64,000 nucleotides of DNA from positions 9,559 through 73,558 of the forward strand of contig JAFGQU010000017.1 of NCBI GenBank assembly GCA_016935525.1, given 5' to 3'. Position numbers and translations under genes: made by a program. The stretch is from Candidatus Omnitrophota bacterium. GTDB taxonomy: Bacteria; Omnitrophota; Gorgyraeia; Duberdicusellales; 4484-171. Below are positions 4,513 to 58,712 of the stretch, piece by piece (within the stretch, counting starts at the first letter, position 1; each line of letters starts with the position of its first letter). The notes under the pieces are model-generated. The model was not told the DNA's origin. It saw only the letters and a list, made by a program, of their open reading frames with translations, and searched no databases.

Positions 4513-4522
4513 TGTTACACTC

Positions 4523-4559
4523 CTTTAAGTCACATAGACACAAGGTCACAAGTCACACG
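4523..4559. repeat. family A arm (left arm of cassette 1)
   Basis: aagtcacatagacacaaggtcacaagtcacacgtcat. Confidence 0.75.
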
Positions 4560-4910
4560 TCATAAAACATGATAGAACTTCCACAGTAAAGACCCAACTT
4601 GTTTCCTTGCTTTTTCTATATTAGTATATTCTTCATCTCTTAAATAATTCATTTCTTTAGAAAATTCCAGCAGATATTCTGTTTCGAATAAGGATCCTAA
4701 GGCAACATTGGCAAATTGGTTCAGTTCCCTTTTACCCTGTCTACCTGTCCCTTCGACAATATTTGTCGGGATAGACAAAGCCGCTCGGCGCAACTGAGAC
4801 GTAATACCGTATATTTCTTCTTTAGGAAACTGTTTAGTAATCATATAAACTTGTTTTGCCAATTCATTTGCCTTTTGCCAAACTAATAATTTCTTATATC
4901 CTTTCTCCAT
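4560..4910 (-). CDS. four-helix-bundle protein (23S rRNA intervening-sequence protein family, PF05635/TIGR02436; Avd-like), copy 1
   Basis: 116 aa and basic. Family hallmarks W-x-KA...FPK-EE-Y-L-SQLRRAA-SI--NI-EG. About 78% identical to copy 6. Confidence 0.85.
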   Translation of the reverse strand: MEKGYKKLLVWQKANELAKQVYMITKQFPKEEIYGITSQLRRAALSIPTNIVEGTGRQGKRELNQFANVALGSLFETEYLLEFSKEMNYLRDEEYTNIEKARKQVGSLLWKFYHVL

Positions 4911-19190: not shown

Positions 19191-19207
19191 AAAATTAAGG
19201 TCACAAG

Positions 19208-19468
19208 GTCACATAGACACATAGTCACAAGTTGAAGGTCACACGTTGCACGACACATAGTCACACGACTCCTCTCAGGATTTCTACAATACGAGATGCT
19301 GCTTTGCCATCCCACACACAAGTCACAACGTCACATAGACACATAGTCACAAGTTGAAGGTCACACGTTGCACGACACATAGTCACACGACTCCTCTCAG
19401 GATTTCTACAATACGGGACGCGGCTTTGCCGTCCCACACACAAGTCACAACGTCACATAGACACATAG
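19208..19468. repeat. tandem 122-bp direct repeat (2.1 units), each unit a family-A arm plus a degenerate copy of the last ~17 codons of wecB
   Basis: Unit starts at 19208, 19330 and 19452. ORF 19261..19443 encodes ...WDGKAASRIVEILRGVV, which mimics the wecB C-terminus WDGKAAQRIVEILKGDM. Confidence 0.8.
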
Positions 19469-20674
19469 TCACATGTCTCCTTTTAAAATCTCCACAATGC
19501 GCTGGGCCGCTTTCCCGTCCCATAAAGAAAGAGAAGGTAGCATTGCCGGGGGATTGTCAAGAATACGCATAGCATCGGTAATTATTTTCTCTTTATCACA
19601 ACCGACGATGATATTAGTGCCGGCATCGACCGTGATCGGCCGTTCGGTGTTCTCGCGTAACGTAAGACAGGGCACGCCTAAAACCGTGGTCTCCTCCTGC
19701 ATCCCGCCGGAATCGGTGAGAACCAGACGCGCTTCACTCATGAGTTTCAAGAAATCCAAATAGCCCAGAGGGTCTATTTGGATTAATCCATAGTCCATAG
19801 TCCGTAGTCCGTGGTTTATTTCTCCTTCTTTTCTCCATTCACGTGTGACTATGTGACTTCCCCGTTCCATAATATTTTTATACAGCGGGGTCCCGCTTAG
19901 ATATGTACATATCGGTGCGGGATGTGACTTTGTGACCTTTGCCAGAGCTTTGCGGGTACGGGGGTGGACGGGAAAGATCACCTTAATATGCCGGGATATC
20001 TCCTCTATTGCCTCCATTATTCCCTCTAAAACTTCGGGGTCGTCGACGTTTGAGGGACGATGCAGGGTCAATACCGCGTATTCTTTGGGTTTTATCCTAA
20101 GATCCTCTACTATTTTGGAATTTGCAGCTTGCTGCTTGTGCCTTAACAAAGTATCAATCATGACATTCCCCACAAAATAGATCTTATCTTCATTTACTCC
20201 TTCCCGAAGCAGATTTTCTTTGGCATCGGGTTCGGTCGTAAAAAGGTAATCCGAAATTGCGTCGGTCAATACCCGGTTGATCTCCTCCGGCATCGTCCGG
20301 TCGAAACTGCGCAGGCCCGCCTCGACATGAGCCACTTTTACGCCTAATTTAGAGGCGACCAGGGCGCAGGCAATAGTGGAATTCACATCACCAACGACTA
20401 CTACCAGGTCCGGTTTTTCTTTTATCAATACCGGTTCAAACCGTTTCATGATTTCGGCGGTCTGGGCCGCGTGAGATAAAGAACCGACCTCTAAATTGAT
20501 ATCCGGTTTAGGTATCCCTAATTCATCAAAAAACAGTTTTGACATCTTCTCGTCATAATGCTGGCCGGTATGGACAAGTACCGCTTCTATCTCGGGATGT
20601 TTTTTGTATTCATCCATGAGCGGCGCTATTTTCATGAAATTTGGTCTTGCCCCCGCCACATTAATAATCCTCAT
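19469..20674 (-). CDS. wecB: UDP-N-acetylglucosamine 2-epimerase (non-hydrolysing) carrying a ~43-aa in-frame insertion derived from a repeat element
   Basis: HTGQHYD ... LVVVGDVNST ... TDSGGMQEE epimerase_2 motifs. The insertion is encoded by 19790-19935. Confidence 0.9.
   Translation of the reverse strand: MRIINVAGARPNFMKIAPLMDEYKKHPEIEAVLVHTGQHYDEKMSKLFFDELGIPKPDINLEVGSLSHAAQTAEIMKRFEPVLIKEKPDLVVVVGDVNSTIACALVASKLGVKVAHVEAGLRSFDRTMPEEINRVLTDAISDYLFTTEPDAKENLLREGVNEDKIYFVGNVMIDTLLRHKQQAANSKIVEDLRIKPKEYAVLTLHRPSNVDDPEVLEGIMEAIEEISRHIKVIFPVHPRTRKALAKVTKSHPAPICTYLSGTPLYKNIMERGSHIVTREWRKEGEINHGLRTMDYGLIQIDPLGYLDFLKLMSEARLVLTDSGGMQEETTVLGVPCLTLRENTERPITVDAGTNIIVGCDKEKIITDAMRILDNPPAMLPSLSLWDGKAAQRIVEILKGDM
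19790..19935. repeat. composite family C + family A + AGCGGGACCCCGCT/TATAAAAAT sub-element inserted in-frame in wecB
   Basis: Reverse complement of 19830-19935 aligns at about 85% to 57555-57660. ccatagtccatagtccgtagtccgtgg at 19793-19820 is family C. Confidence 0.75.
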
Positions 20675-20767: not shown

Positions 20768-21121
20768 CTATTTTGATTTATCAATAATAGCCGTAAAAAT
20801 ATTCCTAATCTCCTTGGATTCTTTTATATTAACGTTAATCTTATCCATAAACTCTTCACCGACTTCTTTTAAAAGTTCTAACCAGTATGAGCTTTCTTTA
20901 CATTCCTTTCTCGCGATCCGCATCCTATGGATAAAATCTTTTTTACTTAACTTTTCATTTGCTTCCCGGTAATTTGCTCCGACAGAACCGGATGATCGTA
21001 TCAGTTGGCTGATAATCTTTGAACTGATTACACTCTTAGGCAACATCTTGCATAACTTGATTACATCTTTAGCAAATTCAAGGGTTCTTTTCTCTAAATC
21101 GTATGGTTTATTTGCATCCAT
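20768..21121 (-). CDS. four-helix-bundle protein (PF05635/TIGR02436), copy 2
   Basis: 117 aa with the family pattern (FAKDV..LCKMLPK ... SQLIRSSGSVGANYREA). Divergent from the other copies. Confidence 0.8.
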   Translation of the reverse strand: MDANKPYDLEKRTLEFAKDVIKLCKMLPKSVISSKIISQLIRSSGSVGANYREANEKLSKKDFIHRMRIARKECKESSYWLELLKEVGEEFMDKINVNIKESKEIRNIFTAIIDKSK

Positions 21122-40158: not shown

Positions 40159-40572
40159 TTAATAGCGGTTAGCGGATAGCGGTGAGCGATTAGAATCAGA
40201 TTCTTGCTCATCACTAAACTTCCCTATTCTCTTAACATACGTCATCAATAATTTTATAACCTCAGACAATAGACTTATTGCCTGATCATACTCTTTCTGA
40301 TTGCACAAGCTGATATCTTTGCTTAAAGACAATTGAGTTTCCAGCTCAGCACAAGACCCCAACGCGATTTTGAGAAACTGAATATATTCTTTTGAACCAC
40401 GCATATACCCTTCAGCGATATTTGAAGGGATAGATATAGCTGAACGTCTTATTTGTGATGTCATCGTATACATTTCGTCTTTAGGGAATTTTTGAGTCAT
40501 TTTATAGATCATAATGACTAAATCGTAAGATTTTTGATATGCCCCTAATTCTTTATAACTTTTTATTTTCAT
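40159..40572 (-). CDS. four-helix-bundle protein (PF05635/TIGR02436), copy 5, with repeat-encoded C-terminal tail
   Basis: 137 aa. LGAYQKSYDL ... FPKDEMYTMTSQIRRSAISIPSNIAEG. Confidence 0.8.
   Translation of the reverse strand: MKIKSYKELGAYQKSYDLVIMIYKMTQKFPKDEMYTMTSQIRRSAISIPSNIAEGYMRGSKEYIQFLKIALGSCAELETQLSLSKDISLCNQKEYDQAISLLSEVIKLLMTYVKRIGKFSDEQESDSNRSPLSANRY
40160..40215. repeat. family E arm, left of cassette 5
   Basis: aatagcggttagcggatagcggtgagcgattagaatc. Confidence 0.7.
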
Positions 40573-47943: not shown

Positions 47944-48594
47944 TTAGTCTATTATTCCCTTTGTGGACGGAATCCCCTGCCGGCGCGGGTCGATCTGAGT
48001 AGCTTGATCTAAGGCTTTCCCCATCGCTTTAAATAAAGCTTCAAGAAGATGATGGAGATCTCCTTGAATGGATTTTATGATGTACACCAGGCTTATTCCC
48101 GCGTGGTTTACAAATCCTTCCAGAAATTCTTCGGTATCTCTAAACGTGAAGTTTGTATTATCAAATTTACCTTCAAGTATATCAGGCCCAACTTTAATGT
48201 AAGACCCTTCCGTTGCATCATAGGACTGAGGTCCTGTCGGAACATATGTTTCTCTATGCAACGAAGGCCGGCCGCTGATATCAACGTTGGCCTCGACAAC
48301 TACCTTATCCATAGTCGCCGAAAACGAACCGTACCGGTTGATACCGGATTTATCGCCCAAGGCTTCTTTAAAGGCTTTACCTAACGCGATACCGATATCT
48401 TCGATAATATGATGAGGAAGATCTCCCGCTGCTTCCAACTTTAAATCAAAAAGGCCGTGAAAGGCAAAAAGAGTGAGCAGATGGTCCAGAGGATCAAATC
48501 CGGTTTTTATATCGGTCTTACCCTGGCCGTCAATAATCAATTCGCCTTTAATGTCAACTTCATTCGTTTTACGCATAATATGAGCTTTTCTCAT
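47944..48594 (-). CDS. hisB: imidazoleglycerol-phosphate dehydratase
   Basis: RKTNEVDIK ... DPLDHLL ... HHIIEDIGIALG IGPD motifs. Confidence 0.85.
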   Translation of the reverse strand: MRKAHIMRKTNEVDIKGELIIDGQGKTDIKTGFDPLDHLLTLFAFHGLFDLKLEAAGDLPHHIIEDIGIALGKAFKEALGDKSGINRYGSFSATMDKVVVEANVDISGRPSLHRETYVPTGPQSYDATEGSYIKVGPDILEGKFDNTNFTFRDTEEFLEGFVNHAGISLVYIIKSIQGDLHHLLEALFKAMGKALDQATQIDPRRQGIPSTKGIID

Positions 48595-48602
48595 TTCTCT
48601 CC

Positions 48603-48688
48603 TCGCAAGTCACATAGTCACAAGGTCACATAGTCACACGTAGGAAAGGGAATCTTACGTGTGTCGTGTGACGTGTGTCGTGTGACTC
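48603..48688. repeat. family A solo hairpin between hisD and hisB
   Basis: agtcacatagtcacaaggtcacatagtcacacgt, loop 15 nt, acgtgtgtcgtgtgacgtgtgtcgtgtgactc. Confidence 0.8.
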
Positions 48689-55409: not shown

Positions 55410-55445
55410 ATATGACCTCCTATTTTTTTAAGTGTTCAGTCTTTA

Positions 55446-55520
55446 GTCCAGAGTCCGTGGACCGTGGTCCATAGACCGCAGTCTATTCTCTATTGTCTAC
55501 TGACTATCGACTATCCGCTG
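55446..55520. repeat. family C solo element upstream of recA
   Basis: agtccagagtccgtggaccgtggtccatagaccgcagtc ... ctactgactatcgactatccgc. Confidence 0.65.
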
Positions 55521-57491: not shown

Positions 57492-57554
57492 TGTCTCCTC
57501 CTCTTCTTGCCTGCTTCGCAGGCAGTCAGGCATCTGCCTTCGGCAAGTCACAAT

Positions 57555-57700
57555 GACACATCCCGCACCGAGATTTTTCTTATCCAGCGGGACCCCGCTG
57601 TATAAAAATATTATGGAACGGGGAGGTCACATAGGCACACGTATTCGGTTTCACGTGTGACGTGTGACGTGTGTCGTGTGACATGTGACGTGTTTTACTC
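57555..57700. repeat. composite family A element containing the AGCGGGACCCCGCT palindrome + TATAAAAATATTATGG sub-element
   Basis: 57560-57660 is about 85% identical to the reverse complement of the wecB insert. Right arm acgtgtgacgtgtgacgtgtgtcgtgtgacatgtgacgtgt. Confidence 0.8.
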
Positions 57701-58324: not shown

Positions 58325-58362
58325 TATAAGTCACAAGGTCACAAAGACACAAGGTCACATGT
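58325..58362. repeat. family A arm (left arm of cassette 6)
   Basis: aagtcacaaggtcacaaagacacaaggtcacatgtc. Confidence 0.75.
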
Positions 58363-58712
58363 CAAAGAGAATGATAAAATTTCCACAATAAAGCCCCGAC
58401 ATGTCTACGTAACATCTCTATTTCACTATATTTATCAGCATTCAAATATCCCATTTCACGGCAAAAATCCAATAGATATTCAGTCTCAAACAATGAGCCT
58501 AAAGCAATATTAACAAATTGCTTCAATTCTCTTTTACCCTGCCGGCCCGTCCCCTCGACAATATTTGTCGGAATAGATAAAACCGCTCGGCGCAATTGAG
58601 AAGTGATTGCATAAATTTCTTCTTTGGGAAATTGTCTAGTAAGAGCATACACCGTCTTAGCCAGTTCATTAGCTTTCTGCCAGGCTAATAATTTTTTATA
58701 CCCTTTCTCCAT
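58362..58712 (-). CDS. four-helix-bundle protein (PF05635/TIGR02436), copy 6
   Basis: 116 aa. About 78% identical to copy 1. Confidence 0.85.
   Translation of the reverse strand: MEKGYKKLLAWQKANELAKTVYALTRQFPKEEIYAITSQLRRAVLSIPTNIVEGTGRQGKRELKQFVNIALGSLFETEYLLDFCREMGYLNADKYSEIEMLRRHVGALLWKFYHSL

Follow-up and report, generated by a model that had tools for sequence, protein, structure and literature searches.

How can a gene for a conserved enzyme contain a long block of the repeat DNA found between its neighbors and keep its reading frame? The question is raised by wecB, a UDP-GlcNAc 2-epimerase family gene in a 64,000-nucleotide stretch (64 kb; hereafter the window) from a Candidatus Omnitrophota bacterium, for which an initial annotation made without database searches had described intergenic-type repeats read through in frame. 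We consider it likely that this insert consists of the genome's own small repeats, selfish or neutral DNA that has been tolerated in a surface loop of naturally variable length. As described below, the block would have been built up in stages, one of them the entry of a 64-nt palindromic element (hereafter the core) that is nested within a short tandem array.

WecB is a full-length member of the Epimerase_2 family: the Pfam profile (PF02350) aligns with residues 22-398 over profile positions 2-347 of 347 (E = 3.5e-114), and the columns that are invariant across 120 homologues are all retained, including R10, K15, D96, E118, E131, H205 and H237. The protein is 100% identical to NCBI MBN2483737.1, from a 171-kb contig of a 'Candidatus Omnitrophica/Omnitrophota bacterium' metagenome-assembled genome (MAG), and its homologues in the PDB reach E-values down to 2e-94. 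Alignment with one of these structures, 4neq, breaks into two stretches (query 2-246 to residues 2-250, and query 300-397 to residues 266-361), between which 4neq has 15 residues where WecB has about 53. Similarly, the aligned segment from L244 to P302 comprises 58 residues in WecB versus 15-36 in 119 homologues, with a mode of 16-20. The roughly 40 extra codons, which have no counterpart in homologues, lie between the helix at residues 238-250 and the strand at 297-300. Comparison with the 119 homologues and the PDB chains thus agrees with the insertion of about 43 residues that the initial annotation had proposed to check in this way; its statement that the flanking segments are contiguous in other WecB proteins was mistaken, the homologues having a short loop that naturally varies in length.

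Read in the sense direction, the extra segment comprises two GTCACA octamers, the core, two further octamers, a purine-rich spacer and an array of GGACTAY heptamers (Table 1). Over 104 nt, positions 19841-19943 and 57642-57542 share 87.5% identity (E = 6e-29). The window contains exactly two occurrences of one 39-mer from the core, where shuffled sequence is expected to give 0, and the heptamer array is 91% identical to 34194-34226 across 33 nt. Of the six frames across the block, the one used by wecB is the only open one. These results bear out the central claims of the initial annotation, namely that wecB reads in frame through DNA from the same repeat families as the intergenic regions, that the reverse complement of the block resembles 57560-57660 (at an estimated 85%), and that 'family C' units are present, the last also recovered by Tandem Repeats Finder (period 7, 3.4 copies, 94% matches); the added peptide had been quoted correctly as well. 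Some details required revision. A block is indeed present where one of ~145 bp had been placed at 19790-19935, although its exact limits differ (Table 1); the motif KSHPA, taken for conserved WecB sequence, is encoded by array and core; and the palindrome and the TATAAAAATATTATGG stretch, described as separate intergenic sub-elements, are parts of a single 64-nt core with two copies in the window.

The array families are widespread in the window. The GTCACA family occupies about 12 intergenic sites, where it forms the left arm of a recurring element ('family A') that typically consists of four octamers, a spacer and four inverted CGTGTGA heptamers, and arrays related to 'family C' occur at 34633-34730 and 55438-55483. 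With 7-8-nt head-to-tail units in few copies, mainly in intergenic DNA, these are short heptamer/octamer arrays of the STRR/LSSR type, and they adjoin the ribosome-binding site or the stop codon of neighboring genes. We also noted arrays that directly adjoin coding sequences or end a few bases before the next ribosome-binding site, for example at 4513-4562 and 48590-48640; the second arrangement is also described for TAACTGA repeats. Within wecB, units 3-4 terminate in CACGTGAA, an ending shared with the array of the closest orthologue described below. For the spacer, homologues carry K/E/R-rich loops at the same position, and it is possibly a remnant of the native charged loop joined to a GTTTATTTC tail of the heptamer family.

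Table 1. Positions of wecB, the parts of its repeat block, the intergenic sister copy and arrays within genes at other loci (window coordinates unless a locus handle, L plus number, is given)
Feature	Position	Strand	Description
wecB	19469..20674	minus	401 aa, non-hydrolysing UDP-GlcNAc 2-epimerase family, host of the insert; example peptide SHPAPICTYLSGTPLYK
Whole repeat-derived block	19788..19937	minus	WecB residues about 246-296; absent from 119 homologues
GTCACA octamer array, units 1-2	19923..19937	minus	sense GGTCACAAAGTCACA; peptide VTKSH
64-nt imperfect-palindrome core	19859..19922	minus	sense TCCCGCACCGA...AGCGGGACCCCGCT...CGGGGA; complete core TCCCGCACCGATATGTACATATCTAAGCGGGACCCCGCTGTATAAAAATATTATGGAACGGGGA
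GTCACA octamer array, units 3-4	19840..19858	minus	sense AGTCACATAGTCACACGTG; peptide SHIVTR
Purine-rich spacer	19815..19839	minus	sense AATGGAGAAAAGAAGGAGAAATAAA; peptide EWRKEGEIN; no other copy in the window
'Family C' heptamer array	19788..19814	minus	GGACTAY units; plus strand CCATAGTCCATAGTCCGTAGTCCGTGG, sense CCACGGACTACGGACTATGGACTATGG; peptide HGLRTMDYG
Intergenic sister copy	57545..57642	plus	2 array units, core at 57561-57624, 2 array units; within the left arm of a 'family A' element
Array in QueC	L081 5199-5231		peptide VTKSQSHKVTK; +5 residues net vs PDB homologue
Array in IspD	L113 6609-6642		peptide QVTRSQGHKVT; +9 residues net vs PDB homologue
Arrays in EPSP synthase (AroA)	L083 3145-3174 and 3581-3614		two arrays; +6 and +3 residues net vs PDB homologue
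Array in fumarase (Pfam match)	L081 7364-7397		peptide NVTTSQRHNVTS; called from the Pfam match alone
Array in HisH-like open reading frame	L088 4685-4717		peptide KKSQSHKVTKSH; called from the HMGWN motif alone
Array in RHS-repeat giant protein (Pfam match)	L020 4605-4878		12 units; called from the Pfam match alone

Syntenic orthologues of wecB were found at two loci, L001 and L003, with the gene order GT4, small filler gene, wecB, flippase, GT4 and Wzy. The L003 gene (GCA_964506075.1, 361 aa) has an ordinary short loop containing neither array nor core. The closest relative, L001 (GCA_964483625.1, 373 aa, 82% identical to WecB), carries GTCACAG GTCACAC GTCACAG GTCACACGTGAA at exactly the same codon, followed by units of the AAACGGGC type, a family that also occurs elsewhere in its genome (L091), and no core. 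L112 belongs to the same genome as L001, so the relative does have the core at other loci. Compared with the L001 gene, wecB of the window has 66 nt more in the array part and 18 nt more downstream, which together make up the 28 codons by which 401 exceeds 373. Judging from these sequences, common descent of the wecB arrays in the window and in L001 is likely, and the L001 gene looks like an unfilled target of the core. Because L001 has the array without the core at the same codon and the core elsewhere in its genome, and because the L003 site is empty, the block was probably assembled in steps and not inserted as one piece. The composite element described by the initial annotation therefore stands as regards its repeat composition, though not as regards arrival as one unit.

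The core is an imperfect palindrome centered on AGCGGGAC/CCCGCT and is predicted to fold into either a pair of hairpins or a single long one (z from -2.2 to -3.4 relative to shuffled sequence). Its ends, TCCCGCACC and GGAACGGGGA, are roughly complementary, but they lie within a palindrome that spans the entire element. Four full copies are known: the one in wecB, its intergenic sister in the window, and two in L112 (3331-3392 and 4830-4885), which are both intergenic and ~94% identical to the wecB core. In each case the core separates units 2 and 3 of a GTCACA array, and the junctions are identical in 4/4 cases, with ...CACA followed by TCCCGC at one end, CGGGG(A/C) followed by (A/G)GTCACA at the other, and CACA preceding each copy. 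The core occurs in both orientations relative to transcription, and both orientations are found in one replichore. At ~94% identity between two genomes whose wecB genes have 78% nucleotide identity, a proportion of synonymous differences (pS) of 0.67 and a synonymous distance (dS) of 1.7, the core is conserved far above neutral expectation. A diverged two-hairpin element, TCCCGCATGCG...GCGGGATCCCGCC...GGCGGGA, was also seen in the relative's genome (L010 1996-2070) within an array of a different heptamer, ACGACGT, which suggests a wider family of hairpin elements living in arrays.

Searches with the core returned no Rfam match, at the gathering threshold or at E <= 1, and no blastn match in plasmid and phage collections; a tRNA search found none. 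For other proteins with the insert, a peptide word-index search gave no candidates, the only hits of HMMER with the insert peptide among 1.84 billion representatives were to giant repetitive proteins at 28-36%, which we take to be due to chance, and a 135-aa query returned only ordinary WecB fragments.

The predicted structure of WecB accommodates the insert. The AlphaFold model has a mean pLDDT (predicted local distance difference test score) of 88.4, with values below 50 only at residues 256-290, and the fold is intact; each of the best 20 Foldseek matches is a solved UDP-sugar 2-epimerase, and most of their target-normalised TM-scores fall at 0.83-0.91. In the model the insert forms a probably disordered loop on the surface of the C-terminal Rossmann-like domain, remote from the catalytic cleft, in line with the surface loop of the C-terminal domain that the initial annotation had expected. 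Outside the loop, the ratio of nonsynonymous to synonymous substitution (dN/dS) between the window and L001 genes is 0.054, a value obtained with saturated synonymous sites (dS 1.7). A WecB with a loop of about 40 additional residues most likely still works. A terminator scan of the insert found no terminator-like site, and a promoter scan found no sense-strand match; the sole promoter-like match was antisense, and such matches were fewer than in shuffles. Internal translation restart from the AAGGAG of the spacer was considered and rejected, the next in-frame ATG being 24 nt away. In the reverse orientation, TGTGAC, the array has stops in all frames, which accounts for the position of wecB's own stop codon (TGA) within an ATGTGAC unit at 19469-19475.

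Extending the comparison beyond the window, a four-unit GTCACA pattern matched 116 loci in a genome collection, many of them from Omnitrophota MAGs. The commonest array length is four units (75 of 149 arrays), in a sample biased by the choice of loci with a four-unit pattern. Among the arrays of the window and the Omnitrophota loci, 17 of 94 lie inside long open frames. Those in QueC, IspD and EPSP synthase, each of four units, are in frame and fall in internal loops according to Pfam and PDB alignments, and the remaining examples are given in Table 1. On this sequence evidence, wecB is the most elaborate case of a lineage-wide phenomenon.

The explanation that we favor, the genome's own repeats tolerated in a variable surface loop, can be set out as a series of events. 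Four GTCACA units, about 30 nt in all, would have entered the loop as a block at a stage common to the closest relative. In the lineage of the window, the 64-nt palindromic element would then have settled between units 2 and 3, adding 66 nt (22 codons), and the GGACTAY heptamer array would have arisen separately alongside. Selection would retain only insertions that keep the frame and fall in a loop able to tolerate them; because the sense repeats have one stop-free frame and only lengths that are multiples of three fit, the intact gene may be regarded as a survivor of that selection. The core would be a non-autonomous mobile element that targets arrays and is moved in trans, and the arrays themselves may spread as discrete blocks of about 30 nt. 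A single-strand mechanism like that of IS200/IS605 would be consistent with the pair of hairpins, with CACA as a fixed left flank and with the absence of a duplication, and is offered as a lead only.

Several observations weigh against this explanation. The array units differ in length, being 8 nt in the window and 7 nt in L001, and the full copies of the core number only four. An exact 24-mer of the core had 0 matches in the genome collection and in the JGI metagenome collection, although this 24-mer contained TGG where the L112 copies have CGG, which made the genome-collection scan blind to L112; a corrected 22-mer likewise had 0 matches in the JGI metagenome collection. No transposase was found by tblastn with IS200 TnpA in 0.95 Mb that included 64 kb of the host genome and ~62 kb of the genome of L001, a weak test. 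No target-site duplication is visible, so that mobility is argued from distribution; the array counts 2+2 units at the filled site and four at the presumed empty site of L001, meaning that no unit was gained, while a repetitive target could hide short duplications. Finally, low pLDDT is uninformative on enzyme activity, and if the core arrived recently, there may not have been time for an impaired gene to decay.

The last point leads to the possibility that the insertion crippled WecB and that its frame is open by recency or luck, the gene being a pseudogene in the making. A disordered insert of 40 residues with pLDDT below 50 could destabilize a compact two-domain enzyme, repeat-driven duplications around the 3′ end of wecB point to local instability, and dN/dS averages over a long divergence and is blind to recent loss. 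We nevertheless judge this unlikely. Loop length varies from 15 to 36 residues among homologues, the relative retains a 12-residue repeat insert at the same site with a dN/dS of 0.05, no second wecB or paralogue that might serve as a substitute is found within the 64-kb window, and the gene lies within a conserved polysaccharide operon. In addition, such inserts appear to be generally tolerated, because arrays occur in the essential single-copy genes for IspD, AroA and QueC of related MAGs. An assembly chimera, in which wecB reads were joined to an intergenic copy of the element through shared GTCACA units, is a quite improbable source of the junctions. The region is repeat-rich and shares a 39-nt stretch identical to 57586-57624, and two further facts count against our reading: Logan contigs L120 and L121 of run SRR13394437, 100% identical to window positions 21430-20279 and 19228-12646, end before the insert, and no independent contig with the junction was found. 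The shared arms, however, are only 15-19 nt, below the k-mers commonly used in assembly; the left hairpin of the wecB core departs from that of the other copy in the window (87.5% identity overall), so the core was not borrowed from there; and both junctions coincide with an array present at this codon in L001. Both the frame and the length (+66 nt) are also preserved, which a random mis-join would achieve in about 1 in 3 cases for length and more rarely for the absence of stops, and the same 401-aa protein is annotated by NCBI.

A function acquired by the loop or the mRNA hairpins, as a protein contact, a regulatory RNA structure or a protein-binding palindrome, would be favored by the conservation of the core between genomes with saturated neutral sites (~94%) and by its better folding than shuffled sequence. 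Yet the intergenic copies are equally conserved, in both orientations relative to transcription, and because of this the conservation reflects the element and not wecB; the peptide is predicted to be disordered, the closest orthologues are without the core, and no Rfam family matches it. Such exaptation is therefore very improbable. Least probable of the four alternatives is a contingency locus in which slippage at the 7- and 8-nt repeats would switch wecB on and off (phase variation). The unit lengths are not multiples of three, the gene belongs to a cluster of the capsule or O-antigen type, and heptanucleotide repeats are prone to slippage (Mrazek 2007, as summarised in PMC4679880). Against these stand tracts that are short (2+2 octamers, 3.4 heptamers) and imperfect rather than long and perfect, the occurrence of the same arrays in housekeeping enzymes and in intergenic DNA generally, an array length that peaks at four units in our biased sample instead of varying widely, and the lack of any variant alleles seen.

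Among known systems, the nearest parallel is that drawn by the initial annotation to the Rickettsia palindromic elements (RPEs), a fair analogy that does not extend to membership of the family. As in RPEs (Ogata et al. 2000, as summarised in PMC10969869), a small dispersed palindrome with an open frame of its own lies in frame in a metabolic gene to which it is unrelated, where the fold can accommodate it, and the host protein is presumably still functional; the wecB insert occupies such a permissive surface site. The two have no sequence relation and their hosts are of different phyla, the core is 64 nt long as compared to 100-150 nt and few copies of it are known, and it is nested in a short tandem array instead of being inserted directly, with two tandem-array modules added in wecB. 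The Omnitrophota host, the absence of core matches in Rfam and in plasmid and phage collections, and the absence of peptide matches in protein libraries all speak against counting it as an RPE. [quoted passage not shown] Like the intragenic MITEs, which include ERIC and other enterobacterial small mobile sequences, BOX and the Anabaena MITEs (PMC10969869), the core appears to be non-autonomous and is normally intergenic with an occasional fusion to an open reading frame (ORF); unlike them, it has no clear terminal inverted repeats apart from the palindrome and no visible target-site duplication, and no partner insertion sequence was identified.

For the arrays, the closest comparison is with the TAACTGA heptamer arrays of Beggiatoaceae, Cyanobacteria and Bacteroidetes (PMC4679880). 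These consist of 2-6 tandem 7-nt units, lie mostly just upstream of start codons and have a sporadic phylogenetic spread; as with GTCACA, one orientation has stops in all three frames and only the other survives in ORFs. In contrast, the Omnitrophota units are GTCACAnn or GGACTAY, peak at four and are often arranged as inverted pairs, and while TAACTGA repeats in ORFs are almost all located at protein ends (PMC4679880), the Omnitrophota arrays occur in internal loops of conserved enzymes.

We found no paper on these repeats in Omnitrophota. The STRR sequences of cyanobacteria are comparable intergenic direct repeats of heptamers. In Nostoc, small dispersed repeats of 21-27 nt that form hairpins reportedly lie inside tandem heptamer arrays, a likeness which, by analogy, suggests that arrays act as landing sites. 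Those repeats are cyanobacterial and shorter, compared to a 64-nt core with two hairpins and one copy in a coding gene. Palindrome-associated derivatives of IS200/IS605 have a hairpin at each end and insert beside a fixed short sequence with no target duplication. The core may resemble them in having two predicted hairpins and CACA before 4/4 copies, a match drawn from n=4 and from a target that is itself a repeat, and differs in that its two orientations share one replichore and that no Y1 transposase was found in the weak test described above.

The surroundings of wecB provide further context. Gene-like ORFs are all on the minus strand across the window and GC skew is negative throughout, and the 24 kb around wecB form a polysaccharide-synthesis cluster with synteny to L001 and L003; the exception is the small filler gene, a 23S_rRNA_IVP gene here and PDDEXK_3 in both relatives. 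The last 17 codons of wecB (WDGKAA[Q/S]RIVEIL...) are repeated downstream of the true stop codon at 19200-19473; they appear twice in the window, within a 122-bp tandem repeat (2.2 copies at 96% identity), and once in the relative (L001 3888-3945), and these copies retain their amino-acid sequence despite lying in an intergenic spacer. Six 23S_rRNA_IVP genes, encoding bAvd-like proteins of the four-helix-bundle type, occur within the 64 kb, all on the minus strand (4560-4910, 20768-21121, 34251-34604, 36519-36926, 40159-40572 and 58362-58712). Most are flanked on both sides by 7/8-mer arrays, two showing arrays on one side only, and several of the flanking pairs are inverted, for example with GTCACA upstream of the gene and TGTGAC downstream of it. 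This layout was also seen in another Omnitrophota MAG and in two Bacteroidota MAGs (L046 4849-5244, L012 2528-2860 and L095 187-570). The gene-less 'family A' elements look like ORF-less versions of this arrangement, which recalls the intervening sequences (IVSs) of 23S rRNA.

The wecB locus most likely adds a further phylum, and an unusual nested construction, to the known cases in which genes tolerate selfish repeats. In-frame repeat insertion is among the few routes by which a new protein loop can arise in bacteria in one step, and it has been treated as a rarity outside Rickettsia. Here three syntenic orthologues represent three states (empty, array, and array with nested palindrome), so that the event can be divided into stages, and the same arrays in frame in core enzymes of several other Omnitrophota MAGs suggest that such insertions are common in this lineage. 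Repeat-encoded loops that are foreign to the protein family will turn up in annotation pipelines and in homology-based models for Omnitrophota, and repeat-rich junctions of this kind are the most fragile places of MAG assemblies. A broader and much more tentative idea, possible though on balance doubtful, is that Omnitrophota, and possibly Bacteroidota, harbor an as yet undescribed system of very small mobile DNA: four-unit blocks of ~32 nt that would bracket genes for 23S rRNA IVS proteins as inverted arms or stand as gene-less hairpins, insert in frame in loops of housekeeping enzymes to give peptides of the 'VTKSQSHKVTK' type, and serve as specific landing pads for the 64-nt element between units 2 and 3. 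If true, these genomes would be a natural experiment in selfish DNA writing new protein loops.

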